A stretch of DNA of 64,000 nucleotides. Source: a phage. The notes beneath the pieces were generated by a model. The model searched no databases and was not told where the DNA came from. It saw only the letters and a program-made list of their open reading frames with translations. Below are positions 2,705-53,653 of the stretch, one piece after another. The DNA is taken from the sequence record PZ171032.1, one strand, 5' to 3'. The translations under genes and the position numbers were made by a program. Position 1 is the first letter of the stretch. Each line of letters begins with the position of its first letter.

Positions 2705-3046
2705 CTACTCAAGGTCTTCAGAGTCAAGCTCAAAAAGAATCAAACTGTGCATGCCTGCAGAGAGATCAACACACCCTGCAACAATAAGGGTCTGATAGTA
2801 AGGTTCAGCACCCTCGATGTCTTCGTTAAAATCCACAACAAGGTAGTCACCTTTGTTAAAGGTGTATTTGTCCGATGTGAATGCAAAACCTGCCCAGTCC
2901 CCTACTGCAGGATCTTTATCAGTCACCTTTGTTAGCAGTAGATCTTTTTCACGAGATCTTTTAGTAAAATCGTGAATCACAACATCCTTCTCTTCAGGAG
3001 TTGGATTGCCACACACGTAGTTAACGATATTTCTCCACAAACTCAT
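2705..3046 (-). CDS. hypothetical protein
   Basis: 113-aa ORF; its start overlaps the helicase stop. Confidence 0.55.
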   Translation of the reverse strand: MSLWRNIVNYVCGNPTPEEKDVVIHDFTKRSREKDLLLTKVTDKDPAVGDWAGFAFTSDKYTFNKGDYLVVDFNEDIEGAEPYYQTLIVAGCVDLSAGMHSLILFELDSEDLE

Positions 3047-5617: not shown

Positions 5618-5627
5618 CTTGGTCTCC

Positions 5628-34586: not shown

Positions 34587-37500
34587 TTAGTCGTGAGACT
34601 CGTTCCAAGGTCCCTGGAAGCTTGAGTTAGAACGGCTTACTACAACAGTAGGACAGGATATTGCGACCCCTGTTACAGAAGACGTTGACCATGGTGTGTA
34701 GATTTCAACAACAATATCTATGGTTTGTTCACCAAGACCTGTTATCCCTACCGCACACATGCCGTTGTTGTCGTTTCCGTACTTCTTACCTGCAAGGATT
34801 TGATGTCCGGCTATCCAAACGTTGAGCTGGGAGCTGGCAAGAGTACCATTCAGTTTAAAGAAGAATGTTACGTTCTTACCCTGACCTGAAACGTTATCTA
34901 CGTATCTCCACCTCCAACGGCAAACCCTTTGCTGGGAGTTATATACTGGAGCACAATCCCCATAAGTCCTGTGTGCAACAATTGCACCTTCGAACTGGTT
35001 AGCGCGGATAACAGAAGCTTCTACACGACCACGGAAGGTACCTCCGGTTGCGTCTATGGTGCCTCTAAAGCTACCATTATTGGCATAAACATCCCCACGG
35101 AAGGTACCACTAGTGGCGTTAACTGCCCCTGTGAAGTTACCAGAACTGGCGTTGATGTTGCCTTTCACCCACACATCCATAAATTGGGCGTGCCCGTTCT
35201 TGTTAATATACCAACCGTATTTATGGTACCCGTTGCCATCGTAGTTGTTTGACGAAATTTCTTGTGCGATCTTGGCAGAGGAGATCGTGCCATTCTCTAT
35301 AAAAGCGTCTTTCAAGAATGCTTGGTTGTTCTTGATTGCGAAAGCAAGGGTTGCTGTTCCATTGCCTGGGTTGTATACCGCAAAATTGTTTGCACTAACC
35401 ATGAAGTAGGATTGAACTTGGCCCCCAGACCCTTCCATCCCCAACTGGATACCTGCAACATATTTATTCCCTGCGGAGTCTACCTGTATTTTTGTGCCCC
35501 ACTGAGCATTTACTTTACCCTCTAAGTCGGTTACAGCCTTAGATGTTGTAGCTACTGCAGCCCTGATCTCGGACACATCCCCAACACCATCAATGATCTC
35601 CTGCTTAGCAACGGCAAGTTCTTGACGAATAGCTGACGCTGTGCCGTTAATCAGATCAACAGTGGCGTTATTAGTTTCAGAAATATTCGCAGACAAGTCT
35701 TTCTTCGTCTGAGTCAGCTTATTGTCCAACCCAGTAATATTATTGGTGTTGGTTGTAATCTGCCCTTTAGCAGTGGTTAACTGCTCAGTCAAAGCTGCCG
35801 TTTTCTGATTCAACAGGTCAGTTGTGGCCTTGTTGGTGGTAGAAATCAACGTATTAAGATCAGACTTGGCGGTGTTTATCTTACCATCAAGCGTGGTGTA
35901 GTTTTTGGACACTGTGGCGTTGGTCTGGCTAATCTTCTGGTCAAGAGTCTCAGAAGTTCTGTTCAGCAAGTCCACAGTGGCCTGGTTAGTGCTCAGAATG
36001 CTCGCATCCAACTCAGATCTTTGAGTATTCAACTTGCCCTCTAGGCTCTTATCACCAGCCAGATAGCCTTTTTCAACATCTCCGATCTGCTCAGTCAACT
36101 CGCCCTGTGCAGCAACCAGTTTTTCATCCAACGCCTCTGTTTTCTTATTAAGAAGATCAGTGGTGGATTTGTTGGTTGACTCAATCAAGGATGATAGTTT
36201 AGCACTCTCATTCTGCAGGTTGTTGGTCAACTCACCTTTCGTTGCTGTCAGCTTGCTGTCTAAAGCCTCGGTTTTCCGATTAAGGAGATCTGTAGTCGTT
36301 TTATTGGTTGATACAATCAGAGAGTTCAGCTCAGAGCTTTCCTGTGCTAAAGCATCTTCCAATTCACCCCTTGTTGAAACAATCTTCTCGTCCAAAGCTT
36401 CAGTTTTCTGATTTAACAGATCGGTTGTAGCTTTGTTAGTGGTCTGGATTAGAGAAGTCAACTTGCCACTTTCTTTAGAAAGATCATTTGCAAACTTATT
36501 CTGAGTGGCTACCAGTTTCTGGTCTAGAGTGGTAAGCGTTCCATTAACGTCCTGGAAGTTGTCGTGGGTTTCTTGGATGAATATTCCAACCCTATCCCCC
36601 AACTGAGCATACAGCTTGTCTACTCTAGAGAACTCACCTTCCATGTGGTCAAAAGCCTCGTCAACTCTACCATCCATGTACCTGTTAAGTTCTGTGACAC
36701 GATTTTCAACCTCTTCAATAGAGGAATCCAAAGTGCTCATCAACTCTTTATAAGTTTCTGTCTTTTTGAATTCAGCATCTATCTGAGGCATCAAATCCTC
36801 GATAGAGGTGTAGCAGCGTGCAGCGCATTCTACAAACTGAGAGCTACCAAAAGCGTTTGTGGTTCTAATATACCAATAATAAACCTTATCGTTCTGCAGG
36901 CCTTCAGATGTCCAAGTTGAACCAACACCCATACGGGTGGCGTTTGAAGTAACGGTTGCATCACTGGTGTCGGGCAACCTTGTCATACCAGATGTCCAAA
37001 AGTCATACTGGGTGCTTACACTTGCTAAATCCCTGCTGTGTGGAATCAAGGTGATAGCAAAGTATCCCTGCTTAACCTCTACAGAAACAGGAGCTTCAGG
37101 TGCCTGAATGTTAAACTCGCAGTACGCTTCTGGAGATACACCACCTTTATAAGATGTTGCAACCACGGTTGCTGTGTATGATCCTTTGGTCAAGCCTTCT
37201 ACTCGGACAAACTGCTCAACTGTCTGTGCTGTCCAAACAATCTCTCCGTTCTTTCTTACCTGTACAATATTTTGAGCGTAAGTTCCAACGTTGTCCCAAG
37301 CCAAAACACCGTGAGTTACTTCTCCGGCTTGGAGAACGGAATATCTGAAGTTTTGCGGTTGAGCTACACCAGATGGAGATATCGGAATATCTACATTGCC
37401 AGAATCCGGAAGTTGCCCTGTGGCATCATTCCACTCTTTAGCATCTTGACGAAGTTTTACCTTGACACCACCCTTTTTGGTAAACTCCCATTCAAGAACC

Positions 37501-38732
37501 CTCATTTCTTGGCCCACTATACCAATACTTGGAAGGTTCATTGTAACGTAACGACCAGGTTTAAATTTAAAACCTCGCATATTGCAGGTGACTTCAATAA
37601 TCCTGCCAGCTCTAGCGCGTCTTAAGAAGATTGCAGAAACACGCTGAGCTTGATAAGGACTGGTAACAAAGCGATAGTCTATATCGATTATCTTTCTTTC
37701 TCCATCCTTCTCTATCCACTCTGGGACAAACACTGATGGAAAATCTGTTTCAGAATACCCTTTGGTCGGACTAGTGAATCTGCCAGTTATTGTGTTGGAT
37801 CTTTTGTCAAATGAGGCTTCCGGATAGATCTTGACCTCACCACAGACACAATCCTCACTCAGCGTCATTGTTGCCGGGCCATAGTATGCACCAACCAGCA
37901 AACCATACTTACCAGCTACATAGCTGAGATCTGCGCCACAAGCTTTCAGCATTTCTGCCATAATGCTTGCCGGAGCCTCGTCCATGTCAAACTCGCCATT
38001 AATGGTGTATCGGCGCTCACTGGTTCCGTCTGCGTTTTTTACCGCCTCGTCGCATATGTTAGCAGCCTCCTTGAAGGACTCCCAGTTGATGGTTTCGTCA
38101 GGACATTTAAGGTACGTTCTTAAATAGTCTAGAATCACCAAGGACGCGTTATTGGTATACACCTCTTTACTGATGCGAGGATCATAGCATTTTTTACCAA
38201 CCTTGACGAGTGTAACGTTTGGCAACCCAAAAGGAAACTTGTTAGGGTCGAACTTGAAGCTGGCACGTAGCCAACTGATCCCTCTACCTATCATGTCTGG
38301 TGACCACGATGGGCAGTGTGTCCCCATGAAAGGATCAGCCGTTTTTCTGTCGTTATGTAACTCCCACGATACCAAATCTCCATACGAGGAAATAGGATTA
38401 CCATCGACAAGTATATCTTCTATACCTTCCAGAGGGTGATTGGCAAGAACAATAGCACAATGGAGGGTTTTGTCTCTATCCTGCTCCAAAAACGCAAGCA
38501 ATCCAGATGTGCGTGTCTTTCCATACACTACAGAGCAAGGTGCAGCAGAAGATCTGAGAAGCTTTTGTCTATCTTGCTGACTTCTGTAAGATTTGTTGCC
38601 CTCAAAAATCTTATCCAGAGTTCTGGTGGTAACAGTGTTCAGGCTGTCAGCCAGAGCTGCCTTGGATGCGTTCCAGTCATAACTTGAAGATCTTGCAGAA
38701 GCAACGATGTTATCAATCATTGCAATTGGCAT
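34587..38732 (-). CDS. large tail fiber protein (1381 aa) with central coiled-coil repeat shaft
   Basis: Central ~300 aa of ~44-aa tandem repeats ('LIxSTNKxTTDLLNxKTEALDxKL...GEL'); C-terminal Gly/Asn/Thr-rich region; large structural ORF in the fiber cluster. Confidence 0.7.
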   Translation of the reverse strand: MPIAMIDNIVASARSSSYDWNASKAALADSLNTVTTRTLDKIFEGNKSYRSQQDRQKLLRSSAAPCSVVYGKTRTSGLLAFLEQDRDKTLHCAIVLANHPLEGIEDILVDGNPISSYGDLVSWELHNDRKTADPFMGTHCPSWSPDMIGRGISWLRASFKFDPNKFPFGLPNVTLVKVGKKCYDPRISKEVYTNNASLVILDYLRTYLKCPDETINWESFKEAANICDEAVKNADGTSERRYTINGEFDMDEAPASIMAEMLKACGADLSYVAGKYGLLVGAYYGPATMTLSEDCVCGEVKIYPEASFDKRSNTITGRFTSPTKGYSETDFPSVFVPEWIEKDGERKIIDIDYRFVTSPYQAQRVSAIFLRRARAGRIIEVTCNMRGFKFKPGRYVTMNLPSIGIVGQEMRVLEWEFTKKGGVKVKLRQDAKEWNDATGQLPDSGNVDIPISPSGVAQPQNFRYSVLQAGEVTHGVLAWDNVGTYAQNIVQVRKNGEIVWTAQTVEQFVRVEGLTKGSYTATVVATSYKGGVSPEAYCEFNIQAPEAPVSVEVKQGYFAITLIPHSRDLASVSTQYDFWTSGMTRLPDTSDATVTSNATRMGVGSTWTSEGLQNDKVYYWYIRTTNAFGSSQFVECAARCYTSIEDLMPQIDAEFKKTETYKELMSTLDSSIEEVENRVTELNRYMDGRVDEAFDHMEGEFSRVDKLYAQLGDRVGIFIQETHDNFQDVNGTLTTLDQKLVATQNKFANDLSKESGKLTSLIQTTNKATTDLLNQKTEALDEKIVSTRGELEDALAQESSELNSLIVSTNKTTTDLLNRKTEALDSKLTATKGELTNNLQNESAKLSSLIESTNKSTTDLLNKKTEALDEKLVAAQGELTEQIGDVEKGYLAGDKSLEGKLNTQRSELDASILSTNQATVDLLNRTSETLDQKISQTNATVSKNYTTLDGKINTAKSDLNTLISTTNKATTDLLNQKTAALTEQLTTAKGQITTNTNNITGLDNKLTQTKKDLSANISETNNATVDLINGTASAIRQELAVAKQEIIDGVGDVSEIRAAVATTSKAVTDLEGKVNAQWGTKIQVDSAGNKYVAGIQLGMEGSGGQVQSYFMVSANNFAVYNPGNGTATLAFAIKNNQAFLKDAFIENGTISSAKIAQEISSNNYDGNGYHKYGWYINKNGHAQFMDVWVKGNINASSGNFTGAVNATSGTFRGDVYANNGSFRGTIDATGGTFRGRVEASVIRANQFEGAIVAHRTYGDCAPVYNSQQRVCRWRWRYVDNVSGQGKNVTFFFKLNGTLASSQLNVWIAGHQILAGKKYGNDNNGMCAVGITGLGEQTIDIVVEIYTPWSTSSVTGVAISCPTVVVSRSNSSFQGPWNESHD
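35590..36490. repeat. imperfect tandem repeats (~132-nt period) encoding the coiled-coil shaft
   Basis: About six degenerate copies of the motif gttttctgatt-aacagatc-gttgt-gc-ttgttgg visible in the nucleotide sequence; boundaries approximate. Confidence 0.6.
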
Positions 38733-39169
38733 TAATACCTCCAGACATCAACAACGATAGAATCTTTCATATCGAACATAAAGACCCCTTTATCACCTTT
38801 CGCCCAAATCTGGTTGTTCCAGAACACACCAGCGGTGAGCCCGTTCAGACCCTCGAAGATAACAATATCGCCACGCTGAACCTGTTTAGGAGTATCTAGT
38901 CGAGTCATAAAGAGATCAAAAATAGTAGGCAGGTGTGTGGTTTTGAAACGGAGCATGCACCATCTTTTGCTTTCCAACTCTGTTTTATACGTTCCTTCGA
39001 AGTTAGAAAGAAAATCTGTTCCGTATTGGGCATCAACACACTTAGCTGCAAAGGTGCAGCAATCGTGGAATCCCCATTCAAAAGGTATGGTGGCCTCTTC
39101 GTCAAACACTTTCCACAATCTTTCTTGCCAATCCACTAAACGAGGGTGTGTGCTCATTAAACCTCCCAA
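38732..39169 (-). CDS. hypothetical tail-associated protein
   Basis: 145 aa; 'WGFHDCCTFAAK' looks superficially like a Cys-peptidase motif but no matching catalytic His was found; stop overlaps the fiber start. Confidence 0.45.
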   Translation of the reverse strand: MGGLMSTHPRLVDWQERLWKVFDEEATIPFEWGFHDCCTFAAKCVDAQYGTDFLSNFEGTYKTELESKRWCMLRFKTTHLPTIFDLFMTRLDTPKQVQRGDIVIFEGLNGLTAGVFWNNQIWAKGDKGVFMFDMKDSIVVDVWRY

Positions 39170-39723
39170 ATGATCGGGCGGCTCGCCACCTGATCCACAT
39201 ATTTAAAAAATCTGTCATTATCGTTTCTTGAGCTGTGGCTTTCCTCCGTGTACCGATAAGGAAAACCTCTTAACCAGCTGTTGAAGATGGAAGAGATGGA
39301 TATGGACAAAGCACTATTCTCACCTGTCTGAATAGCCATATCTGTTATAAGTCCGTCAAACAAGCCATTAGTTGTAACAGGTAGACCATTCTCCATAGCG
39401 GTAATGTACAACGTGGCACGACAACCAGAATACTCCGTCTTCAGCAGATCACCCACATACTTAGGATCAAACCCGTTTAATGTTGCTACCACAGATCCGA
39501 AGTTGGTGGCATCTTTCTCAGACACAGCAGTTAATGTTGCTGATCCCCCTATCCCTATAAAATGTTGCCCCTCAATTACTACAACACCAGTGCCTGAGCA
39601 CACTCTGACAGTTCCTGTCGGTAGCTCCAGCTTTGCAGCAATTAAGATCTCAACACCATCAAGCTCCAGCTTTTCAAGAAATAAATTATCTAATGGCGCT
39701 CTGATCATCTTAGAAATCCTCAA
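39157..39723 (-). CDS. hypothetical tail-associated protein
   Basis: 188-aa ORF co-transcribed with the fiber genes. Confidence 0.5.
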   Translation of the reverse strand: MRISKMIRAPLDNLFLEKLELDGVEILIAAKLELPTGTVRVCSGTGVVVIEGQHFIGIGGSATLTAVSEKDATNFGSVVATLNGFDPKYVGDLLKTEYSGCRATLYITAMENGLPVTTNGLFDGLITDMAIQTGENSALSISISSIFNSWLRGFPYRYTEESHSSRNDNDRFFKYVDQVASRPIIWEV

Positions 39724-40300
39724 AGAAGTTGATAACTATATTATCACCTTTTTGCATAGCATCGACTTTTTGCTTAATTTTATAAATATCTCTGATATGA
39801 AACCTACCCTTCGGGGATTGAGTTATTATCTTCATAGTGTCCCCTGCGGCAATAGGTTTTCTAAGTCTTGGAGATATGCTTATAACAGCAGACCCAACAC
39901 CATCGCTACGCACTGGAGCTGTTACCACTTTCAATTCATCATTGACAGATATTTTATCCCCAGCTCTGGCTATGTCTCTGTTTGGCTCCCACCCAACCGT
40001 CTTCAAAAAATCGTCGTTACCAGTAGGCCCAAGGGCGATTGGCTCATTAGCTGTTACCGAGTGACCGTAAGTTTTAATAAGAAAGATGTTCCCATCTTTA
40101 TACACCTGATCAACAAAGCTCTTAAGCTCTAGCAACTGTGACTCGCTGATATTGGAAACCGTCAAAGTGCCTTTCCAGTTGGGTGTGGCATAGGTTACTT
40201 TTTGCGTTTTACCTGTAAACGGACTTTTAAACGTAACAATATCTGCCAGCAGCTCCAATCTAATATCTGGAAGGTATCTAGGCCTTTCCCATAAAAACAT
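39710..40300 (-). CDS. hypothetical tail-associated protein
   Basis: 196-aa ORF, first gene after the 40373 terminator and promoter. Confidence 0.5.
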   Translation of the reverse strand: MFLWERPRYLPDIRLELLADIVTFKSPFTGKTQKVTYATPNWKGTLTVSNISESQLLELKSFVDQVYKDGNIFLIKTYGHSVTANEPIALGPTGNDDFLKTVGWEPNRDIARAGDKISVNDELKVVTAPVRSDGVGSAVISISPRLRKPIAAGDTMKIITQSPKGRFHIRDIYKIKQKVDAMQKGDNIVINFFEDF

Positions 40301-40399: not shown

Positions 40400-43300
40400 T
40401 TACTTCAGTTTCTCTTGCAACCCAGCAACAACCTCTGTCAATTTTTTAACCTGCTCCTCAAGGGCAGTTATTTTATCGTCCTGTTCCCTGCAAACCTGGA
40501 CAAGCAAGCCTGTTACAGCTGCGTAATCCACGCTGTAGAATCTTTCCTCTGTTATTAAAGGAGTTCCATCCTGATCAGGGTTTGGGATTTCCTTGCTTTG
40601 CACGAAAGAGCTAACTGCTTCCGGCAGCGCTTCAAGCACTTCTTGTGCTATAACACCTGCATAAGGCATACCATTCTCTTTTAAAGTGTAGGTATAGCCC
40701 TTCATCTTCCTGATAGCTTCTAACGCGTTAGGAATAACCTCTATGTTATCCTTCAGGTCGCGGTCAGAGTTTTGGTTCACAGATACACAGTTCACTGCAC
40801 CGTTTACAGAAAGGTATCTTGATTTATCTGGCAAGGTACCACAATGCCATACCCAATTTGATTGAGAATCGTCAAGAACCTTAAACTCCAACACGTTTGG
40901 ACGATTTCCTGTACTGCCGTTGCCCCAATAGTGCATATGAGCGCTATTCGCAGGCATGTTGCCACCGTTATTAGTAACATGGCTTCCAGAAATATATACC
41001 TTTAACTCTGAGGTCGGTATTTCCCCTTCGGGAGTTGTTCCTCCATATCTGAAGCTAACACCATTGCCACCTGTTTGGGTCCACGGGCCCCAAGTGAAGG
41101 TTTGTCTCACCATATTACCATAACGTATAAATCTATCGCCGTGATAGGTAATATACTCTTGAACACACCCATTACCGTTATTGGCGTTATTCTGCAACAC
41201 AATAAGTGTTCCAGCTTCATTTACCGGATAATGACGATCATATGTTGCATCATTATTTGCCGATTGATGGTAAATGCCTTCCCACAACCCATTATAGGTG
41301 TCAAGGTCTGAGGTACCGAGACCCTGACCCCTGTGCTGCATAGCTTTATTCCAGGGGTGGTGATTACCGCCTTCTATAGACCTGGTGTATAAGTTACTTT
41401 GTCTGCCAGCAATCTGGAAAGCGTAGTTTCCCGAGAATCCTACAGATAAACCTCCTACAACCATGGTGTCTTGTGGACCGTTAACATTACCAGCCATTAT
41501 TTTTGACGGGTTATTAGGCCCGAACTGGTTGTTCCAGTCTCCACCAGTATGACATACAAAACCACCTGGGGCTGAAAAAGTACCATCCTTATTGAAGTTG
41601 TAGAATCTATGAGCTGTGCCCACAACATCTCGAACAATAACTTGACCAGCCTCTGGAGTAGACCTGAACTCTGCTTGACCTTTAAGGCCAGCACCATTAC
41701 CGCATTTAGAGGTAAACGTGCCGTTAGTTAGATCCTCTGTTCCATCTGATGCACACTGGAATCCTGCGTTAGAGAATAGCGCCTTTCTAGGACCACTGTA
41801 GCACAAATAGTCAAAACCGTCAGCCCATAGCTCTACTTTAGGCATGTTCATTTTGCTCATTATCGCATAGCGTTCAGCAGTGCCTATATAGTGCCACTGT
41901 GTGCCGCCGCCAGTGTAGAACCCTGAAGTCCCTTTGAAGTCAACAATAGGTCTAGTGTTGGTATTGTTATCTCCAAGAACAGCCAGATTTAAATCTGCTG
42001 ACTGGAGAGGTGCAACGAACTTAACACCGTCCTGATTGTTTGTTACAGAGCCGACTTGATAATCTTGCTCTCTGGTAAACACTTCGACAACATTTCTACT
42101 TGCGTATATGCTGACAGGGAAAGCACGAGCCTCTGCATAGAAAGCAACATACTCTTGTTTACCCCTTGTTGGAGCAACCATCCCAAGAAGTGCTTTTTCA
42201 TTTTGATAGAAATTCACTACCCCGTAGAAAGAGTCCCCTCTATCTGTCCAACCACCAGTTCTATAGTGACACTGTAAGGTGGCGCAGTTCATAGGGTCAC
42301 CGCCGGATGACGATCTGGTGACTAGGGTAATATCAGTGCCAGTTGCTGGAGCATAATACGGATCTGTTCTAACGATGATTGGGTAGTATTTCCCATCTTC
42401 CATCCCTGCAGTTCTTGGCAGTGTTAAGAAATCTTTGACACCCGCAGCTATAGGAACTTTGAACAGATTCTGAGCATCTGCCAGGGTTGTAGCCCCTGTA
42501 CCACCTGCTGCATGAGGTAAAGGTTCCCACTTAGCCTTCCGGTTGTTATAAACACCCCACTCCAGACTTCCGTTACCGGATTCGTCCATCCCACCATCCC
42601 AGATAACCATCTTGGCGGCTTTCTTGGACCCCCAGAAGCCTCTTTCTGCTCCTGAACTACGGATCCACTCTCCAAGTCCCCAGTTTGTCAGCTGACCAGT
42701 AAGATCCCCAACCTGCATGTATTTAGGGCAGTCTAATACACCGTCTTCGCGGAAACCTAGATATCTATGAGTTTCAGATCCTTTTGCACCTTTGTGCAGG
42801 TGGATTGTCAACCAAGCTTTATTGTCGTTTCTTACCTCAGAGTAGATCCTATATCCATGCTCAAGGACACCGTCAGCGCTATATTTGTCCCCGTTAACAA
42901 TACCGGATGCTGACTTAACATCAGCAGAACTTTGAGACAGGTAAAGGTGCCCGAAGGTAGGGGAGTTTCTAGACCCGAGACCGATGTGCGATCTAAAGGT
43001 ATCATCGTTACGAGGTCTGACCATCGGCTGCCATGAAGTCCACTGGTTTGTGTTGGCCTGATAGGTTCTCAAATACCAAACATCTACGTTAGAGAATGGA
43101 TAGTATTCCTGACGACAGCCTGTACCGCCGTTAGCATTGTTCTGCCAAACAATCAAGTGACCAGCACCAGAACCTGCAGGGTAACCATTTGCCTCGGTTG
43201 CATAAGCAGTCATCGGCTGATAGTATACACCATCCTGATTACCAGTCAAGTTATTGATATTGAAATTTGGCTCAAGGGCTGCACGTTGCTTATAGAAAGC

Positions 43301-44212
43301 CCCTAAGTTAATGCGTGCACCTGCGGCATCTCTGGCCCCAGTACCGCCTTGCTCTATAGCAAGAGGTTGCCACGAAGCTGTTTGTTGGTTCCACATGCCC
43401 CAACGGCCTGTTGCATCAAGCTGCAAGTACCCTGCTGTGTTTAAATCATCTCCAGCACGGATAACTGTTCTTGTTGGGTTGTTTGCCTCTAGGCGTTTAA
43501 ATTCATCACGAAGTGCTATTCTTTTTGTTGTTGCTACACCGTTGGTTACTGCAATGGTATACATGGCTCCGGTGGTAGCGCCACGGAAAATACCATCAAC
43601 AGTTGTAGTATCACGACGAGATACCACACCATTCAGAAATTTTTCACCAGCTGCTACAGAAGGGTAGTTGGTAGTTCTTCCCTCTTCAATAACTGCAGGA
43701 CCAACAAAGTTATCAAGGTGAATAACATCACCTACAGTGTGCACTGTACCAAAATCTACACGCTGTGCAAGTGCTTTAGCATCGTTAGCTGTCTGAACAG
43801 TAACATCCATTACATCCTGGACAGACTGCCCTTCGGCTGTCATAATCATAGATGCACCAATGGTAGATTCCAGCTCCTCCCTTAGGGACGGGTCAGTATA
43901 TACCATCCATGCAGCGTCAGTAATCCCACCATCTGAGTACGGTGAAGACAATGCAGGAACAGTGTGTGGAAATTCGCCTTTCCAACGCAGGTAGAGGTCT
44001 TCCTCTTCGAAGTAGGCAAAATCCATTGGGCCGTTTAACTTACCACCTTCCTTAAAGGAGATTACATGAGAAACAGTCCCATCAACATGGACAACATCGC
44101 CAATTTTTACACGACGGGTCAGGTCTGGTTGTTGAACAACCAGGTAATCATCCTCTGTCACTGCGGTAGTGGCAGGAAGAGATTCAATTCTGACAACTTT
44201 AATATCAGCCAT
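40400..44212 (-). CDS. tail fiber/tailspike (1270 aa) with C-terminal intramolecular chaperone domain (peptidase S74-type)
   Basis: C-terminal 'NQNSDRDLKDNIEVIPNALEAIRKMKGYTYTLKENG...AGVIAQEVLEALPEAV' matches the autoproteolytic chaperone signature (SDxRxK ... GxIAQEVxxxLPEAV); N-terminal ~100 aa homologous to the 46847..47515 product. Confidence 0.85.
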   Translation of the reverse strand: MADIKVVRIESLPATTAVTEDDYLVVQQPDLTRRVKIGDVVHVDGTVSHVISFKEGGKLNGPMDFAYFEEEDLYLRWKGEFPHTVPALSSPYSDGGITDAAWMVYTDPSLREELESTIGASMIMTAEGQSVQDVMDVTVQTANDAKALAQRVDFGTVHTVGDVIHLDNFVGPAVIEEGRTTNYPSVAAGEKFLNGVVSRRDTTTVDGIFRGATTGAMYTIAVTNGVATTKRIALRDEFKRLEANNPTRTVIRAGDDLNTAGYLQLDATGRWGMWNQQTASWQPLAIEQGGTGARDAAGARINLGAFYKQRAALEPNFNINNLTGNQDGVYYQPMTAYATEANGYPAGSGAGHLIVWQNNANGGTGCRQEYYPFSNVDVWYLRTYQANTNQWTSWQPMVRPRNDDTFRSHIGLGSRNSPTFGHLYLSQSSADVKSASGIVNGDKYSADGVLEHGYRIYSEVRNDNKAWLTIHLHKGAKGSETHRYLGFREDGVLDCPKYMQVGDLTGQLTNWGLGEWIRSSGAERGFWGSKKAAKMVIWDGGMDESGNGSLEWGVYNNRKAKWEPLPHAAGGTGATTLADAQNLFKVPIAAGVKDFLTLPRTAGMEDGKYYPIIVRTDPYYAPATGTDITLVTRSSSGGDPMNCATLQCHYRTGGWTDRGDSFYGVVNFYQNEKALLGMVAPTRGKQEYVAFYAEARAFPVSIYASRNVVEVFTREQDYQVGSVTNNQDGVKFVAPLQSADLNLAVLGDNNTNTRPIVDFKGTSGFYTGGGTQWHYIGTAERYAIMSKMNMPKVELWADGFDYLCYSGPRKALFSNAGFQCASDGTEDLTNGTFTSKCGNGAGLKGQAEFRSTPEAGQVIVRDVVGTAHRFYNFNKDGTFSAPGGFVCHTGGDWNNQFGPNNPSKIMAGNVNGPQDTMVVGGLSVGFSGNYAFQIAGRQSNLYTRSIEGGNHHPWNKAMQHRGQGLGTSDLDTYNGLWEGIYHQSANNDATYDRHYPVNEAGTLIVLQNNANNGNGCVQEYITYHGDRFIRYGNMVRQTFTWGPWTQTGGNGVSFRYGGTTPEGEIPTSELKVYISGSHVTNNGGNMPANSAHMHYWGNGSTGNRPNVLEFKVLDDSQSNWVWHCGTLPDKSRYLSVNGAVNCVSVNQNSDRDLKDNIEVIPNALEAIRKMKGYTYTLKENGMPYAGVIAQEVLEALPEAVSSFVQSKEIPNPDQDGTPLITEERFYSVDYAAVTGLLVQVCREQDDKITALEEQVKKLTEVVAGLQEKLK

Positions 44213-44226
44213 TCTTTCTCCTGAAA

Positions 44227-44243
44227 GGGGGCAAACAGCCCCC
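44227..44243 (-). terminator. intercistronic hairpin (attenuator/terminator-like)
   Basis: gggggc-aaaca-gccccc hairpin immediately after the upstream stop codon; followed on the minus strand by TTTCAGGAGAAAGAATG (Shine-Dalgarno and start of next gene). Confidence 0.4.
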
Positions 44244-44247
44244 TATG

Positions 44248-46845
44248 TTAAAGGTACAATCCACGGTATTGAGCATAGAGGCCCAGACCGCGAAGGATTT
44301 CGCCAGAGTGATAGCCTACCGGATCAGAAACTGCCCAGCAGCCGTTTAAAACATTATCCCCATTAATGAAGTGGTGCTTTTGCAGTAGCTTCACACAGGC
44401 TTCTACAACAATGTCTATTTGAGGTATTGTCTCTGAATACCCGCACAGACCTAGCCAGCAGCAACCTGCAAGCCATTCACCTACCACCCACATCCTGTCT
44501 CCTCTGTCTTGATAAGAATATCCCCCAGAGGTGTTAAAGTCTGTAGGCAGATTTCCTGAATGAGATGACTGGAATCTGTTGAGGAACCATGCCCATTTCT
44601 GGCAGAACAGGAATAGTCTTTCATCAACAGGTTCTTTATGTTTCTTGAGCTCATATATTGTGCGGCACGCAGCAACAAAAGATCTTGACTGGAGCTTAGA
44701 GTTATCTACCATCTCCCACCAACCAGCCAACCCTTCATTACCTCTTTGCCATACATAACGTGAGGCAACTGGACCCTCTGTCTTAAATGTATTGTTATAC
44801 CAGACTTGAGCGTCATACAGAAAGCCTATTGTATTTGACAATCTATGGCGATCTATGTTTTCTGCACCCATGCAGTAGACTGCTGGGTATTGCATGCCAG
44901 GATAGGGCCAATTTGGCCTTTCCTCTAAAAGATAGTTTTCCTTATCTATTACCTTTCCGGCAGGGAACACACCTGGTGTGTGCCTGTATGCACCTTGCTT
45001 GTAGTTTCTGACATAGCAATCGCCAACCTTAGCGGTTGATTCTGTCTTGCTTGCCATCCACACGCTAAACCAGATTAGATAAGCATCTCTATCTGCAATA
45101 TAGAATTGCGGCAGCGTGTTGACGCAATACAGATCAAACAAGCCATTACCTATCTGCCTGTCGCTTAGGCTGAAATCTACAGAGGTGAGCCCCTTAGGAT
45201 TAGCAAAGAAAGGTTTAATCTCTTCTTCGGTGTGATGAGGTTGTGTCGGATCTAGTTTGAAATCTCCTAGAGTAAGAGTTTCTGTTATCCATTGTCCATT
45301 AGTGGCATATAGATCAGCATACCATAACCACCTGTCTTTGTCAAGAAATTTGACCCTTACCATCTCATCATCTGATCGATAAGTTACTGAGTTTAAAGAA
45401 ATCTCTCTCCCAAAATTGAAAGTTACTTTACCTCTTGCTATATTACAACGGGTGAAGTTGTCAGAGTGGTTGTAAATGTCTGTATCATACTGCATACTAA
45501 CACTAGCGCCACCGCTTACGGCAATGTTTTCCTCTTTAGGTAAGAGATACGGATTACCGTCTTTACCAACTACCTCTACGAAATCAGTAACCTTGGCAAC
45601 TATTTCTGTTACCTCTGCCCCTCCAAAAGGAACCCCTATCCTGTACTGTTTTTTGTTATTGTTGCCATCATTAAGGATGAAATGTGGCTGGAACAGAACC
45701 CCTTCTCCTCCGAAATTCATAACAATTTCAGCATCTCTGCCTATTTTGTATGTAGTCCCTTTTTGAATTATTTCGCAAGGCTGGCGTGCGTTCATTCTAA
45801 AATTGATATACCCGTCACTGTCCCTGCTCATGACAGGAACTGTTCCTGCAACAAGACAAGCACCATCTGTAAACGGTGCCTTAACCAACGTGGTCTTTCT
45901 AAACAGTTTGTCGTAGGCGTTTATGTCACTGAAATTAAGCAACTTGTTGTAAGACTGTTTAAACGCGGTGTAATACTTTTCCTCACCTGTCAAGGTGTAG
46001 AGTTGATAACAAGCGTCACACCACATTTCTTCCCCGTCCAACTCTGGGGCCTGATTATCTGCAACCACGTTTATAGGATTTACAATTACAGGGGATCCTG
46101 CAGGTATCACCGATCCACCCTGCTCTTGAGGTAATCTCACACAATAGGTTACCTTGTGGCTGCCTGTAACACCCTTATCTTGTAATTGGATTGTGCCGAA
46201 CTCTACAGACGTATGACCACTATCGGCTATGCTACCGTTAGCCCAATAGCGGTTACCATCCCATGCTATATACCACTCAACCCACCAACTTAATCCGGAT
46301 GTTGTCCAATCCGGGTTAGCATCTGTGCCGCCGTAAACATCAGAGTCTACAGTGTTTCTTCCTAACACACCGTTATACGCTTGGAATGCCTTGTCCAGGT
46401 ATTCCCCCCATGTCGGAGATCCAGCTGGGATTTTTCCTCTACCATTGGTAAAAGACACCACCACATCTTTAAACCCACCATGTGATGGAACCCCATCTGT
46501 GGATAGAGGGTAGTGGGACAATCTTTGCATTTTACTTTCTACTGCATATGCACCCAGAAGATGGCTATTGTAAGCTTCCCAAGCATCTTTTGCCCTATCC
46601 AAGTAGAAATCGCTTTTCGATGCCCTGTATGCTTCAATGTACCCCAGAATCAACACAGCTTGGGACTCATGCATTGCCCAATCATTATTTATCTTATTAC
46701 CTGACCACCCTGCAGCTATAAGACCATCAGGGTTTACTAGCTTATTTTGTGTAGGGGTGTTGGTAATACCTGTGTTGTTATCGAGGCACTTCCTGTGCCC
46801 CTCAATCATCTGAAATACGTTATCAATGTTGTGTTGAATACGCAT
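44248..46845 (-). CDS. tailspike-like protein with probable enzymatic (glycosidase/depolymerase-like) domain
   Basis: 865 aa, Trp/Tyr-rich ('SWWVEWYIAWDGNRYW', 'VGEWLAGCCWLG'); lacks its own N-terminal anchor; its start (ATG at 46843-46845) abuts the upstream adapter stop codon (46847-46849). Confidence 0.55.
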   Translation of the reverse strand: MRIQHNIDNVFQMIEGHRKCLDNNTGITNTPTQNKLVNPDGLIAAGWSGNKINNDWAMHESQAVLILGYIEAYRASKSDFYLDRAKDAWEAYNSHLLGAYAVESKMQRLSHYPLSTDGVPSHGGFKDVVVSFTNGRGKIPAGSPTWGEYLDKAFQAYNGVLGRNTVDSDVYGGTDANPDWTTSGLSWWVEWYIAWDGNRYWANGSIADSGHTSVEFGTIQLQDKGVTGSHKVTYCVRLPQEQGGSVIPAGSPVIVNPINVVADNQAPELDGEEMWCDACYQLYTLTGEEKYYTAFKQSYNKLLNFSDINAYDKLFRKTTLVKAPFTDGACLVAGTVPVMSRDSDGYINFRMNARQPCEIIQKGTTYKIGRDAEIVMNFGGEGVLFQPHFILNDGNNNKKQYRIGVPFGGAEVTEIVAKVTDFVEVVGKDGNPYLLPKEENIAVSGGASVSMQYDTDIYNHSDNFTRCNIARGKVTFNFGREISLNSVTYRSDDEMVRVKFLDKDRWLWYADLYATNGQWITETLTLGDFKLDPTQPHHTEEEIKPFFANPKGLTSVDFSLSDRQIGNGLFDLYCVNTLPQFYIADRDAYLIWFSVWMASKTESTAKVGDCYVRNYKQGAYRHTPGVFPAGKVIDKENYLLEERPNWPYPGMQYPAVYCMGAENIDRHRLSNTIGFLYDAQVWYNNTFKTEGPVASRYVWQRGNEGLAGWWEMVDNSKLQSRSFVAACRTIYELKKHKEPVDERLFLFCQKWAWFLNRFQSSHSGNLPTDFNTSGGYSYQDRGDRMWVVGEWLAGCCWLGLCGYSETIPQIDIVVEACVKLLQKHHFINGDNVLNGCWAVSDPVGYHSGEILRGLGLYAQYRGLYL

Positions 46846-46846
46846 C

Positions 46847-47515
46847 TTAGATAGCTCCTGCGATAATCAGTGCCCCGTACCAAGTTAACCCGTTGTCGTA
46901 GGTTTCCAACTTGAAAATATCTGTTGCACCAGCTGTAAATGTTAGGATAGGATCTCTTCCGTAGGACCATTTAACATTACCAGGCCAATAGACTTTGTTG
47001 CCGCCAGAGGTCTGAGTAATGCATACGGTTATAGTTCTCGCCACTCCTTCAAGACCTTCTGTTTGATTTTCAAAAGAGATTGTGGTATTTGAAGTTAGTC
47101 GAACCTTAAAGGTATCCGCAACTTCAAGATCCATATCAAGCTGACCACCGATAGATCCGTAATCAACTATTCTGCCAGAAGAAGTTGCAGCAAGCTCACC
47201 AAAAACAGACCAGGCATTTGCAGACACACCCCCAGCACCCTCTACAGTGGAGTCTGGGAGGATTATTTTAGGATAATCCCCGTTCCACGTGTAGTAGCGC
47301 TTAGTTTCTGGGTCATAAGCAAAGTCCTTCTTGCTCTTAAGATAACCACCCTCTGTGAAATAGACTATCTTAGTAATGCTAAGATCGTTGACAACATCGT
47401 CAATCTTAGCCTTTCTTGTCCCATCAGTCTGGTTGACAACCAAGAAGTCATCACTCAGGACTGTTTCTGCATCTTCAAGATCTGGAATTGGTATTGTAGG
47501 ATAAGCTACAGCCAT
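46847..47515 (-). CDS. tailspike adapter/anchor protein
   Basis: 222 aa; N-terminus 'DDFLVVNQTDGTRKAKIDDVV...FTEGGYLKSKKDFAY' is homologous to the N-terminus of the 40400..44212 fiber. Confidence 0.55.
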   Translation of the reverse strand: MAVAYPTIPIPDLEDAETVLSDDFLVVNQTDGTRKAKIDDVVNDLSITKIVYFTEGGYLKSKKDFAYDPETKRYYTWNGDYPKIILPDSTVEGAGGVSANAWSVFGELAATSSGRIVDYGSIGGQLDMDLEVADTFKVRLTSNTTISFENQTEGLEGVARTITVCITQTSGGNKVYWPGNVKWSYGRDPILTFTAGATDIFKLETYDNGLTWYGALIIAGAI

Positions 47516-47524
47516 GATTTCTCC

Positions 47525-48241
47525 TTAGTTAACATCAATAGCACGACCAGACTGGTTGGCAATAGCCTCATCATTGGAGGTAGCAATAACACCAGAGTAT
47601 TCGCGCTCATCTGGAGCAAGCGTCCAGGTATTGCGGTTAATGGTTTGTTCTGCCTCAGTCATCAGCAGATCTTTATCCTGAGTCAACAGAGAGCCTACAG
47701 GGATCGGGTTTTCCATCTCAGGACCAGCATACTGGTTCCACCATGTGGCATCTCCGGTTCTAGGTAATCTGAAGTTGATCAGGTAGTACAGTTTATTAGC
47801 CCACTTAATCCAACCCTCATCATCACAGAGAGAGGTTGTCCCAGAATCAGGTTGTGGGTAGGTGAACTGATCAAGACCTACGAAAGCCAGCCTTACAATC
47901 TCGTTCTCTTTGGTAACAACCTCGAAGAACGCTTGGTATGTTCTCGATCTTCGGTCCATGGTAGACTGGAAGTTTATGATGTTTAGCACATCCGGCTCTT
48001 GTCTTGCCACTTCCATGATCTTGTTATCAAGAACAGTCTTCATGACCTTCTTGCTGAGAAAGTCCATATAAGGGAAGCCAAACAGCTCGTCAAAGTACCA
48101 GCTCCCCTTCCACGTATTAAACCTCATCCACAAGCGCTGGCGCAGACTTACCTGGTTTGAATCTATCAACTCAAGACCTTTGTCTATCGCCAAATCGCCT
48201 GTCTGCGGGTCCATCAATATATCACTATAAAGCGTAGCCAT
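47525..48241 (-). CDS. baseplate wedge protein, gp25/gpW-like
   Basis: 238 aa; N-terminal 'DPQTGDLAIDKGLELIDSNQVSLRQRLWMRFNTWKGSWYFDELFGFPYMDF' matches the GPW/gp25 pattern. Confidence 0.5.
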   Translation of the reverse strand: MATLYSDILMDPQTGDLAIDKGLELIDSNQVSLRQRLWMRFNTWKGSWYFDELFGFPYMDFLSKKVMKTVLDNKIMEVARQEPDVLNIINFQSTMDRRSRTYQAFFEVVTKENEIVRLAFVGLDQFTYPQPDSGTTSLCDDEGWIKWANKLYYLINFRLPRTGDATWWNQYAGPEMENPIPVGSLLTQDKDLLMTEAEQTINRNTWTLAPDEREYSGVIATSNDEAIANQSGRAIDVN

Positions 48242-48253
48242 GAAAGCCCTCTA

Positions 48254-48931
48254 TTAGTGCGGTCCACTTGTCTCGCCATCAGGGCAAGAGTGGGTATGAC
48301 CTTTATATTCTGCATAGAATGAATCCAAATCCACACCTGCAGCAGTTATAATTCTACCAGATGGGTCTATTGTAGCACCATTCATTCTGATATTCCCATC
48401 CACAGCAGCTCGCAAATTGGCAGCCCCGTTAGTGAAAGAAAACTCCCCGCTGCTGTCGCACCGTAATGTCCCACCAGGTGTTTGAAGCTCAAAATCGCCA
48501 GAAGGTGTCAGTTTAAAATAAACTCTATCATTCCATAACTCTACGTTATCAGGATCGATCTGTAAGGCGTTTGAGTCTGAATGAACAGAGGTGATTGCCC
48601 ACCCTGGAAACAGGCCGTGAGTTTGTTGATCGTCATTATTGTTTTCATTCCTCTCTGAAAACTGCAATCCTACAACATCTCCAGCCTTAATAGGAAGTGT
48701 TAACCTTGCCTTTCCGCTGTTTGCAGACATCACCTGAATTGGAACGTCATAGATAAGAGGGTATCTCTCCACATCTCCGTCATCAAACGTGGTTTCAGCT
48801 ATTGGCTGCACGGCTGCAGAAGGTATACTGTAGTCAACACTGACAACTCTGGCCCTGATACTTGTGTGGTAATCCCTCATTATTTTTTCTATGAAGGATC
48901 TTACAGCAGCATCTTTCCTATTTATTGCCAT
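48254..48931 (-). CDS. baseplate central spike, gpV-like
   Basis: 225 aa; C-terminal 'YKGHTHSCPDGETSGPH' is an apex-type His-containing motif; sits between the baseplate hub and wedge genes. Confidence 0.55.
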   Translation of the reverse strand: MAINRKDAAVRSFIEKIMRDYHTSIRARVVSVDYSIPSAAVQPIAETTFDDGDVERYPLIYDVPIQVMSANSGKARLTLPIKAGDVVGLQFSERNENNNDDQQTHGLFPGWAITSVHSDSNALQIDPDNVELWNDRVYFKLTPSGDFELQTPGGTLRCDSSGEFSFTNGAANLRAAVDGNIRMNGATIDPSGRIITAAGVDLDSFYAEYKGHTHSCPDGETSGPH

Positions 48932-49935
48932 TATACCTCCTCAGTTTTGTCAACAACTCCACCCACTGTTTCCCCAAGGCCAAGCTCTGTAGTGTAATCA
49001 CCTCCTTCTATGGTGCCCTTATGATGCACCGTGATCACCTTATAGAATCCTGTATATTGCTTGCTTTTAAGATAAATAGTGGACTCTGGGAGGATAGCTC
49101 CGTTAAGGCATGTGGTTACAGTAAGGCCAACATCCTCTCTCGGGTTTTTCTTTTTCTTTTTAGATGTCGAACCACCTTTGGCAGCAGCTTTAGCTTTTCG
49201 TTTTTTAGCAGGTTCTGGGTTTTTAGGGGTAGGCGATCCGTGCATCCCAGACTCTGCACTTATTTCAAACACAGAGTCTTTGAACCTTTTTCCAACCTTG
49301 GTCCAATACAAAGCTCCATCCTGAACGCTAAACGTGGAGTTGGTCAGCCTTGCAAACCTGCGTAGGTTCTCTGCAGTGTTTCCAGAGAAAGCCATAGAGT
49401 ATTGCAAAGTCTGGTTTCCAAAACCAACAACCCTACCTTTTGGCAAGTTCATATCCTTCAGCAGGTCATTAAGCACAGAATTCAGAGGTGTTCCTTTCTG
49501 ATAAGATCTTGTGCTTTGGCACTTAATGATGTTCTCAGTACCATCCCCAAAGATGAACTTAGTTTTTCTGGTCGGACCTTCCCACCTGTCTTCAACAAAC
49601 TCTACAGTTCCGGAGAATATCAACTGGTTCTCATCATCATAGCCAGCCTCAAACATGACTGCAAGGGCATCAGCCTGATGCATATCCAGATAGTTAACTG
49701 TATCGTCAGACAGGTTGTAAACTGTCACATAACCTTTGTTTGGCTCTTTGGTATTGTCCTTTTGTATGTCAAACTCTATATTGGCAGCACCAGTGTCTGA
49801 GCTAACTTCATAAACTCCGGAATCACTATCCCCTTTCTTTTCAACAGATTTTGGGATATTGGTTTTTGATTTACCGCCATGTTCTACCGGACGACCAAAC
49901 AATAATCGCCATGTTCTACGTCTGTACTCTGCCAT
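48931..49935 (-). CDS. baseplate hub/tail protein with Lys-rich low-complexity insert
   Basis: 334 aa; contains 'PAKKRKAKAAAKGGSTSKKKKKNPRE'; assignment by position after the tape measure gene. Confidence 0.45.
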   Translation of the reverse strand: MAEYRRRTWRLLFGRPVEHGGKSKTNIPKSVEKKGDSDSGVYEVSSDTGAANIEFDIQKDNTKEPNKGYVTVYNLSDDTVNYLDMHQADALAVMFEAGYDDENQLIFSGTVEFVEDRWEGPTRKTKFIFGDGTENIIKCQSTRSYQKGTPLNSVLNDLLKDMNLPKGRVVGFGNQTLQYSMAFSGNTAENLRRFARLTNSTFSVQDGALYWTKVGKRFKDSVFEISAESGMHGSPTPKNPEPAKKRKAKAAAKGGSTSKKKKKNPREDVGLTVTTCLNGAILPESTIYLKSKQYTGFYKVITVHHKGTIEGGDYTTELGLGETVGGVVDKTEEV

Positions 49936-51316: not shown

Positions 51317-53653
51317 TTACCAAAGGTCGGTAGACATGAAGTTGATATCTTTATTGTTCTCCCACTCCAGTTTTGCATCAAATATTTTGTTAAACTCACC
51401 CTCATCTATTGAAATCGTGATTTTCCCATCACTGATTTCTAAAGGTAACATTTCCATAGTTCTTAATTGAGAAGCAAAACCAGGGCCACCTGGTAACGGA
51501 AGAGTCCCGCCCGGCAAGGTGTCCAAAGGATTAACAAACCCGTTACCTCCTGATATGATATCTTTGCGAATCATATCGCTGATAGTATCCAGCTGCTGAT
51601 TTCTTTCACTCAACGGGTTGTAACGGTCATTAAACAATTCCCCGGCGCTTAGTATTGTACCGATAATGCCTAACTTACCGAGCAGACCAACTTTGCCACC
51701 AGGTGTCTTGAGGCCACCTCCCCCCTTTCCTGCCGGAGCGCCACCACCAGATCCTTCTGTAGTAGCGGCACCCGCTGCTCCAGCTGCACCCCTTAGAGAG
51801 TTAAGGAATTTAAAGGTTTTTACAAGCATGGATGCCATGACAAAACCTTTTGTAAGGGCGTTCACTACCAGCATGATGGCAGCAGCAAACCCTGCCCATT
51901 TAGCATAGCTAAAGGTGTCATGAAGCTCTTCAGAATATTCCTTCGTCTTGGCTGTTATGAATCCCCATTTAATCCCCCATTCAAGGAAAAACATGCGGAT
52001 CTTGACTATAGTGTTGTTTAGTTCACCAACTACCCAGTTAAGGCCTCTCACAAATCCACTAACAAAATCACCAGAGGCATCCCACACAAATTGCAGAGTC
52101 TCGCCAGTGCGGATTAGTGTATAATAGAACTCTGTCAGTTCGTCAGACCAACGGGTGAACAGTTTCTGACGAGTCAGTTCGATGAAGGTTTTCAGTCTGT
52201 TTTCTGCCAGCACGTTAGACTTCTGCATTCTTTCATAGCCAGCTGCAGATGCCTCGTTCATGTACTTAGCCACATACTTCATGATCTTGGCTGTTTTAAC
52301 CTCACCTTTCTTCATCATGTCCATGAACTGATCCATGGATAGTTCAGAAAGACCAAAAGCCTCTTTAGTGGCCTTGATAAAAGGTTCGTATGCACCCGGC
52401 AATGCTTCAGCAAGTTGTTGCTTCAGTTCTTCGGACATTACTTGTCCTTTCCCAAGCATCTGTTGGATTGCCATAATACCGCGCTGGTATTTTACCTCAT
52501 CAGCACCATAAGCAGCAGCATACTGGGAGTATGCAGAAAACAGCTCATGCACTTCCTGATTTGTCATCTGGTTTTTGGCGTTTACCGACATCTGGGCGTA
52601 ACCTTGAAGACCAGATTTGAGATCAAAACCAAGACGCATAGCCTCTTGCTGGACAAACGCAACCTCACTGTTGGCTTTGTTTGGATCTCCAGTAACAGCA
52701 GTAAGAGCAGCACTTGCGCCCTCCATCATGTGACCGGATCTGTTAACCGCAGCAAATCCAGAAAAAGCTGTATACGCAGCTGTTGCATTAATAACAGATC
52801 TACGTAAGTCTCTCATGGCATCGCCTAGTGTAAGCGTTTGGCTGGTGGCACTTTTAAATCCAGACTGCAGCGCTGACAGGTGGGCGTTAAAGGTTGACTT
52901 TTTCATTTCCCCGCGAGCAAACCTGGACTCTAACTCTGAGTATCCTGGCAAGCTTCCACGGAATCCTGCCCCATACTTGGCAGAGAGTCTTATCGCAGAG
53001 TTGTAGAGGTGGGTTCTTCTTGCCTCACGATCCGACATAAGCCTATTATCCATACCAGCTTTACTGTCTCTTCTTAGCTGTCTATGATAACGATTCATAG
53101 CGGCTGTCTGGGCTTTCACAAGATTAGGATCTGAAGCCACCCCACCCATGTTCGGGTTGCCTGGAATATATCTGAAAGACTTGGCGTTAGCAAGAACTCT
53201 TGCCTTAGGTGCCTTATAACCCCCATAGGATACTGGTGCAGATTTGGCAGCTTTTTTAGCCTCTTTAGCTTGCTGCTGGTAGAACTTACGCATCCTAGCC
53301 ATCTCTGGGTTTTTGGCGGTAAGATTGCCTACAGCTTGCCTACGTCTTGCATTCTCCCTACGCTCTATTGCAGCCTTTACTGCAGCCTCTTTCTTGGCCT
53401 GAGCAACGCTCTCCCTGTGCAGTTTAGCATTTGCCTGAGATTGCTGTCTGGCAACCCTCTGCATTGTCTGCTGGGTTTTAACAGCTACCGCCTGCCATCT
53501 ACTCATGGGGTTGGCTGAGTTAAAATCCTCGCCCAGTTTCCTGAACTCCCTCCCAATACTGCGAATTTTCTCTACAGCTTTTTTGTAGGAGGAGTTCTCT
53601 ATCTCAAAGCCAATCTTGTTGACTGTTGTGGCAACTATTTTGTTTGTAGCCAT
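51317..53653 (-). CDS. tail tape measure protein
   Basis: 778 aa, Ala/Gln/Lys-rich helical N-terminal half, Gly-rich C-terminal region; position after the frameshifted chaperone pair. Confidence 0.8.
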   Translation of the reverse strand: MATNKIVATTVNKIGFEIENSSYKKAVEKIRSIGREFRKLGEDFNSANPMSRWQAVAVKTQQTMQRVARQQSQANAKLHRESVAQAKKEAAVKAAIERRENARRRQAVGNLTAKNPEMARMRKFYQQQAKEAKKAAKSAPVSYGGYKAPKARVLANAKSFRYIPGNPNMGGVASDPNLVKAQTAAMNRYHRQLRRDSKAGMDNRLMSDREARRTHLYNSAIRLSAKYGAGFRGSLPGYSELESRFARGEMKKSTFNAHLSALQSGFKSATSQTLTLGDAMRDLRRSVINATAAYTAFSGFAAVNRSGHMMEGASAALTAVTGDPNKANSEVAFVQQEAMRLGFDLKSGLQGYAQMSVNAKNQMTNQEVHELFSAYSQYAAAYGADEVKYQRGIMAIQQMLGKGQVMSEELKQQLAEALPGAYEPFIKATKEAFGLSELSMDQFMDMMKKGEVKTAKIMKYVAKYMNEASAAGYERMQKSNVLAENRLKTFIELTRQKLFTRWSDELTEFYYTLIRTGETLQFVWDASGDFVSGFVRGLNWVVGELNNTIVKIRMFFLEWGIKWGFITAKTKEYSEELHDTFSYAKWAGFAAAIMLVVNALTKGFVMASMLVKTFKFLNSLRGAAGAAGAATTEGSGGGAPAGKGGGGLKTPGGKVGLLGKLGIIGTILSAGELFNDRYNPLSERNQQLDTISDMIRKDIISGGNGFVNPLDTLPGGTLPLPGGPGFASQLRTMEMLPLEISDGKITISIDEGEFNKIFDAKLEWENNKDINFMSTDLW

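Follow-up and report, generated by a model that had tools for sequence, protein, structure and literature searches.

A conserved tail cassette in an rV5-like phage that may couple an adapter to a six-hairpin, carbohydrate-enzyme-like protein

In podophages of the SP6 type (K1E, K1-5 and SP6), a small virion-bound adapter carries separately encoded tailspikes that have no anchor of their own. Such adapter-mounted tailspikes are mentioned for K1E and K1-5 in PMC13450770. Here, we analyse two adjacent tail genes in a 64,000-nucleotide (nt) stretch of phage DNA (record PZ171032.1; hereafter the window) that may follow a comparable plan. They encode proteins of 222 and 865 amino acids (aa), which we call p222 (46847-47515) and p865 (44248-46845). 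Both genes, like every other feature of the window located below, are on the minus strand. They are followed by the gene of the long lateral fibre, p1270 (1270 aa; 40400-44212). p222 and p1270 are orthologs of gp43 and gp41 of phage rV5, p865 belongs to the family of rV5 gp42 and phi92 gp141, and the homologous genes of phi92 are those of gp140, gp141 and gp143. The proteins themselves are already known from virions: gp41, gp42 and gp43 were all detected by mass spectrometry in rV5, whose authors also noted with HHpred that the N terminus of gp43 resembles that of the P22 tailspike (PMC3606486). For phi92, a review citing Schwarzer 2012 (PMC5380687) lists gp141 as a "glycosidase." A pairing of gp43/gp140 with gp42/gp141 as adapter and cargo was not found in the searchable literature, which did not include the primary phi92 paper (PMC3457257). 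The literature search also returned nothing linking the six-hairpin fold to a phage tail fibre, nor sialidase to the lateral tail fibre of Vequintavirinae.

Our analysis suggests that p222 and p865 form a conserved two-gene adapter/cargo cassette, and not a split specific to this phage. The evidence comes from a domain of ~95 aa at the end of p222 (aa 126-219; 46859-47140), hereafter the C-domain, which carries the motif QGTGANKV-WP.NVKW..GR.PVLSF..G..DV..F.T.D.G.TW.G and is conserved at the C terminus of the open reading frames (ORFs) upstream of p865 homologs. We examined 71 IMG/VR loci encoding relatives of p865, 66 of which had usable upstream sequence. In all 66, the ORF directly upstream ends in the C-domain (62 identified by single-sequence phmmer at E<=1e-3, four more by a hidden Markov model (HMM)), and most of the ORF pairs are spaced by -4 to +1 nt. 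The reverse test started from a degenerate DNA motif for the C-domain, which was scanned in IMG/VR and gave 94 stretches; 93 were analysed and 90 confirmed by HMM. Eight of these had too little downstream sequence, and among the 82 testable loci a p865 homolog lies immediately downstream in 81. The sole exception (L097) encodes a 1198-aa protein with the domain at aa 1116-1194 (positions 966-4559, minus strand, of IMG/VR 3300033153_010125), and its downstream sequence, which extends for 1.6 kb, lacks a p865 homolog. The two sets share many contigs and hence are not independent. Clustering at 50% identity divides the C-domains into 14 groups. Among named phages, tblastn found p865 in 525 records and p222 in 513, with nearly the same taxon profile, and most of the distant p222 records match only aa ~110-222. 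Records listed for both proteins have the two matches side by side (e.g., inny, Vibrio phage K386, Salmonella phage PKM.Hi.22.6 and phiEa21-4). The pair occurs in Vequintavirus, in phi92/phAPEC8-like phages (as gp140 followed by gp141 in phi92), in the jumbo phage 121Q, in Rosemountvirus, in phiEa21-4-like phages and in 157-kb Vibrio phages.

The shortest proteins ending in the C-domain have about 160 aa and the longest 1198 aa, with N-terminal parts that are mutually unrelated. In Vequintavirus-like phages the N-terminal module is Tail_spike_N, in phi92 gp140 it is a stub of 45 aa, and in some other upstream proteins it is an alanine-rich coiled coil with SPRY. In siphovirus-like contigs of roughly 30-38 kb, it consists of a tail-tube (major tail protein) domain followed by repeats. 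There, the cassette lies between the head genes and a second tube protein of 168 aa, two small ORFs that presumably encode chaperones, and the tape measure protein. One such locus (L018; IMG/VR 3300031418_000467) encodes a 563-aa adapter made of tube domain, repeats and C-domain (2313-4004), and a p865 homolog (4001-6823); about 40 similar loci have this arrangement. In these tube-domain loci, the cargo would be mounted on a tube-like ring instead of a baseplate. Because the N-terminal parts differ while the C-domain and p865 stay paired, the latter two are the co-inherited unit and the anchor is exchangeable, just as one would expect for an adapter with its cargo.

A few proteins depart from the usual layout. 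Three p865 homologs, P0029 (1795 aa), P0040 (1209 aa) and P0037 (1512 aa), have N-terminal extensions of ~270 aa that end in an Asp-box-like "F.T.D.G.TW.G" directly before the p865-like region, and they may be fused adapter-cargo proteins. A metagenomic protein, P0070 (293 aa), has the reversed order, with aa 1-195 similar to the N terminus of p865 and the C-domain at aa 195-274 (E=2e-22); it is either an assembly chimera or a recombinant.

We propose that p222 and p865 make up a two-component tail unit for receptor binding or glycan processing, in which the C-domain holds p865 on the anchored p222; we put the probability of this reading at roughly 60%. p222 would attach to the baseplate periphery through its first 45 residues and its Tail_spike_N domain, paralogous to the anchor of p1270, presumably as a trimer by analogy with the N termini of tailspikes. 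Its C-terminal beta-sandwich of ~95 aa would be a dedicated docking site for p865. The latter, made by coupled translation from a start 2 nt after the p222 stop, has no virion-binding module of its own and is built as a six-hairpin (alpha/alpha)6 barrel into which a beta-sandwich is inserted. It would most likely bind, and probably cleave or otherwise modify, a conserved surface polysaccharide. In this scheme, the gene anatomy, the anchor homology, the fold class of p865, its synteny with the C-domain and, from published work, the presence of the three proteins in virions are observed, and we infer the docking through the C-domain, the oligomeric state and stoichiometry, the catalysis and the substrate. 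An earlier note on this DNA, made from its letters and ORFs, had suggested that p222 is an adapter for a separately encoded p865. We consider this idea well supported by indirect evidence, namely the near-obligate synteny of C-domain and p865 in at least 14 lineages sharing less than 50% identity, and the interchangeable N termini; the docking itself is a prediction from sequence, to which translational coupling and the occurrence of both proteins in virions lend further indirect evidence.

What kind of protein would the adapter carry? The sequence of p865 matched no family in Pfam and no relative in the PDB. An exhaustive HMMER scan of 1.8 billion representatives found 92 relatives, nearly all of which start at the same N terminus. 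The AlphaFold2 model, built on an alignment of six sequences, begins and ends with helical hairpins (about aa 1-320 and 660-865, respectively) and, judging by its secondary structure, has between them a beta-rich insert of sandwich type and ~280 aa (aa 330-613; 45007-45858), inside which PHROG 23426 matches aa 482-580. The insert has the lowest per-block conservation of the family (0.24-0.48, against 0.5-0.66 for the barrel segments). Compared with the PDB, a 34-sequence profile of the family matched only six-hairpin proteins. Compared with Pfam, it gave weak matches to the glycoside hydrolase (GH) families GH76, GH127 and GH47, all below threshold; for GH127, the match was at 0.0083 in 2 of 34 homologs, below the gathering score. 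p865 has the (alpha/alpha)6 barrel of the six-hairpin glycosidase superfamily, reaches the threshold of no specific CAZy family such as GH76, GH88, GH105, GH8, GH48 or GH127, and differs from the classical trimeric beta-helix of tailspikes and depolymerases. Its identity to six-hairpin enzymes (GH8, GH48, GH76, GH88, GH105 and AGE/cellobiose 2-epimerase) is 7-14%, and its barrel is distinguished from theirs by the interrupting beta insert. As modelled, p865 is a six-hairpin, carbohydrate-enzyme-like protein and not a beta-helix tailspike, and from this fold alone we infer a possible depolymerase activity. A study of phage S144 described a tail protein, probably a homolog of p865, that had an HHpred hydrolase prediction and was unlike a spike or fibre.

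The earlier note had also called p865 rich in tryptophan and tyrosine, like a glycosidase. Its content of these residues (3.1 and 5.5%) is indeed higher than in the other large fibre proteins of the window, but it is not distinctive next to p222 (2.3 and 5.4%) or the neighbouring 238-aa baseplate protein (3.4 and 3.8%). Likewise, the likeness to a glycosidase holds at the level of the six-hairpin fold, but does not extend to any CAZy or Pfam family over threshold.

The adapter/cargo arrangement could be right and p865 could nevertheless be a non-catalytic glycan-binding module, an epimerase or a lyase instead of a depolymerising hydrolase. We regard this as doubtful, though it is the most serious of the alternatives. 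The structural matches of p865 include 2-epimerases, isomerases, a lyase of polysaccharide lyase (PL) family PL35 and the non-enzymatic VP4 of SSV19, and no GH family reaches threshold. Furthermore, p865 is at least 95% conserved across ~120 Vequintavirus records, which suggests a conserved glycan target rather than a serotype-specific one; the BASEL authors likewise considered conserved glycans to be the probable targets of those parts of the locus that are conserved. Yet, the top structural matches are hydrolases, the acidic residues E60, D270, E272, D502 and D678 are conserved in 88-97% of the homologs, and the review cited above lists the phi92 homolog as a glycosidase.

The anchor of p222 has two parts. 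Its first 45 residues (47381-47515) hold a motif (..I.DLP....V...D[YF].V..Q.D.T.K..) that, by alignment and BLASTP, is common to p1270, phi92 gp140 and the phi92 endosialidase gp143. It is followed by Tail_spike_N (PF18668) at aa 51-105 (47201-47365; 41 bits in Pfam for a cutoff of 25). The same domain is found at aa 46-103 of p1270, also with 41 bits and above the gathering score of 25. BLASTP aligns aa 8-105 of p222 with aa 7-105 of p1270 (43898-44194) over 99 aa, of which 38% are identical and 55% positive (E=3e-18). When the 272 ORFs of the window that have 50 aa or more were searched by phmmer with aa 1-110 of p222, only p222 itself and p1270 were matched (E=2.8e-17 for the latter). The homology of the two N-terminal anchors, postulated in the earlier note, is thereby confirmed, as is its statement that p865 has no anchor of its own: p865 showed no anchor similarity in these window comparisons, and its homologs share the same N-terminal start. 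That note had the two anchors docking at one baseplate site; for anchors that are homologous, sites that are equivalent, that neighbour one another or that are in mutual contact are equally conceivable. In the PDB, the sequence of p222 gave weak matches to the N-terminal parts of tailspikes (gp13 in 9occ, CBA120 TSP3 and TSP4, and TSP1 in 4oj5).

The C-domain matched nothing in Pfam or the PDB by sequence. In the structure model, aa ~115-222 of p222 form the strands of a beta-sandwich with a predicted local distance difference test (pLDDT) of about 65, the remainder of the model being unreliable. The domain contains a single Asp-box-like motif (ETYDNGLTW, aa 204-212), which probably explains why p222 is labelled "sialidase domain protein" in BASEL. 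We rejected this label: there is one Asp-box only, and the Pfam BNR family reached E=0.094 in 2 of 18 C-domains. A propeller would also need more than ~95 aa.

In another scenario, p222 is a complete short fibre with a lectin-like C-terminal tip, p865 binds the baseplate or another fibre by itself, e.g., via an N-terminal helix, and the adjacency of the genes reflects shared expression or assembly order. The C-domain is at the extreme C terminus, the usual place of receptor-binding tips, Asp-box-like motifs are seen in many glycan-binding proteins, and the N-terminal 20-60 residues of p865 are conserved throughout the family. However, co-expression leaves unexplained why the C-domain alone travels with p865 through genomes of the myo-, sipho- and podo-types (66/66 and 81/82) while the anchors are swapped, and the p865 homologs have no recognisable attachment module. 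We consider this scenario unlikely; were it correct, the finding would shrink to an ordinary pair of conserved tail genes.

The junction between the two genes bears out the close spacing described in the earlier note and reads ...atc TAA g ATG cgt: the p865 start codon (46843-46845) follows the p222 stop codon (46847-46849) after a single spacer nucleotide. A Shine-Dalgarno sequence, AGGAG (46855-46859), lies 9 nt upstream of the ATG, within the last codons of p222. It is encoded by the Ala-Gly codons near the p222 C terminus (..IIAGAI*). An ending of this type (..AG..) is also seen in many adapters of other phages, so that the ribosome-binding site of the gene that follows may account in part for the conservation of the dipeptide. 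The p865 frame is closed by a stop 8 codons upstream of the ATG, and hence there is no hidden N-terminal extension. A p222-p865 fusion by frameshift or readthrough was rejected on the basis of this stop, and no slippery heptamer was seen by eye.

Such a position, directly downstream of a fibre gene and with translational coupling, is also that of tail-fibre chaperones. Hence, p865 could be a large assembly factor of the Tfa type that folds the tip of the upstream fibre and stays attached to it, its barrel being a scaffold and not an enzyme. There is a precedent in Mu, where the chaperone of the tail fibre binds the fibre in a complex and is itself a component of mature virions (PMC7432712). 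We find this quite improbable, more so than two independent proteins. Finally, the literal and recent split of a single-chain tailspike into an anchor gene and an enzyme gene might be suggested by the 1-nt gap, which resembles a broken ORF, and by the rare homologs with ~270-aa extensions, but it is effectively refuted because the two-gene layout, with the same cargo N terminus, holds across the whole family (66/66 loci; ~90 representatives at 50% identity), and also p222 has its own folded and conserved C-terminal domain, and p865 has a proper Shine-Dalgarno and ATG with in-frame stops just upstream. The name "split tailspike" in the earlier note is a misnomer, as two genes are usual in the whole family and p865 is not a beta-helix of the tailspike type.

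Several observations weigh against the proposed unit of p222 and p865, and call for caution. Genes that are tightly syntenic and inherited together could encode proteins that are co-assembled or co-regulated but form no stable complex. For p865, the model reached only moderate quality (pLDDT 64, predicted template modelling score 0.48), the p222 model as a whole has a pLDDT of 45, and the likeness of p222 to attachment modules is weak. Both models were built on shallow alignments, since word-indexed homolog searches gave only 6 proteins for p865 and 4 for p222. No GH or PL family exceeded its curated threshold for p865, the best being GH76 with E=0.0034 in 3 of 34 homologs. The six-hairpin fold is also that of epimerases, lyases, terpene cyclases and the SSV19 tail protein VP4, and does not by itself imply hydrolysis. 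Lastly, the long homologs with N-terminal extensions are weak as Rosetta-stone matches: only P0037 is recognised by the C-domain HMM (13 bits, i-E 0.004-0.04), which detects nothing in the extensions of P0029 and P0040; hhalign was negative (0.9% probability) and a broader HMM did no better.

The surroundings of the pair are those of an rV5-like tail locus. The region 40400-48300 (7.9 kb) is 97.5% identical in nucleotides to Escherichia phage RudolfGeigy, and at least 80% of it is covered by 116 phage records, nearly all of Vequintavirus (rV5-like myophages). Judged by these matches, the source is a Vequintavirus, an rV5-like phage of E. coli. The tail gene run has at its upstream end the tape measure protein (51317-53653), followed by the tube initiator and then the plug, the hub (48931-49935), the central spike (48254-48931), a gp25-like baseplate protein (47525-48241), p222, p865 and p1270, the latter with a C-terminal Peptidase_S74 intramolecular chaperone (aa 1149-1200; 40613-40768). 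The last three proteins correspond to the gp41-gp43 set of rV5, in the same annotated gene order after the hub, spike and gp25-like genes. They have full-length matches in PHROGs 7760, 2871 and 6578 (p222 matches PHROG 7760, "tail fiber protein," with E=8e-120) and are 97-99% identical in amino acids to many Vequintavirus records. Some records labelled "Campylobacter phage" (GenBank MG0656xx, host C. jejuni) are ~96.5% identical across the fibre locus (18 records by nucleotide and 23 by protein search); these are probably mislabelled or contaminant genomes.

On the 3' side of p1270 there are ORFs of 196, 188 and 145 aa, labelled in RudolfGeigy as tail fiber protein, baseplate protein and cell wall hydrolase, and beyond them a 1381-aa protein (together 34587-38732 and 38732-40300). 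This protein varies in length, having 1279 aa in RudolfGeigy and rV5. In RudolfGeigy, its annotation is that of a lateral tail fiber and includes a fibronectin type III domain; in rV5, COG4733 (phage-related tail component) is found in gp37. The whole group (34587-40300) looks like a second, siphovirus-like tip module inside a myovirus fibre locus.

The pair may be relevant to an appendage of phi92. A 2026 cryo-electron microscopy study of this phage found that fibre II, which it called "short, thick, and rigid," is attached where fibre I has its base. It left fibre II without a protein assignment and called its identity "a significant challenge." gp140 alone was tested for this role, and gp141 was absent from the list of candidates. 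Since the N-terminal motif of gp140 recurs in gp143, the protein of fibre I, gp140 together with gp141 is a natural candidate for fibre II, although this is speculation. More generally, the C-domain and p865 could be a portable plug and socket with which phages of widely differing architecture mount a six-hairpin glycan enzyme of ~100 kDa on a scaffold set by the N terminus. This scaffold would be the baseplate for rV5 and phi92, a tail-tube-like protein for siphovirus-like elements of ~30 kb, and coiled-coil/SPRY fibres for others. We offer this extended view, including fibre II as gp140 and gp141, tentatively and at somewhat less than even odds. Phages of the rV5 and phi92 types are valued for their broad host range and are candidates for therapy. 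For one of their appendages, the adapter/cargo pair provides a concrete hypothesis that can be fitted into density, and it draws attention to a conserved, putatively glycan-active protein, distinct from tailspikes, in several hundred sequenced phages. If true, the small docking domain could serve to graft the p865 cargo onto other phage scaffolds.

How does the pair compare with the known ways of mounting receptor-binding proteins? It resembles K1E, K1-5 and SP6 in that a small virion-bound protein would bear an anchorless, separately encoded and glycan-degrading protein. It differs in its cargo, which in those phages is a trimeric endosialidase, a lyase or a beta-helix spike and here would be an (alpha/alpha)6-barrel protein, and in the C-domain, which has no detectable sequence relationship to their docking domains. 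There is also a functional likeness to the branched complexes built on T4 gp10-like (XD) domains, such as CBA120 TSP2/TSP4, G7C gp66-gp63.1 and the Klebsiella KP32-type anchor with its second receptor-binding protein. Here again, the docking domains lack a detectable sequence relationship, and the six-hairpin cargo of p222 would replace the trimeric beta-helix or endosialidase carried by these systems.

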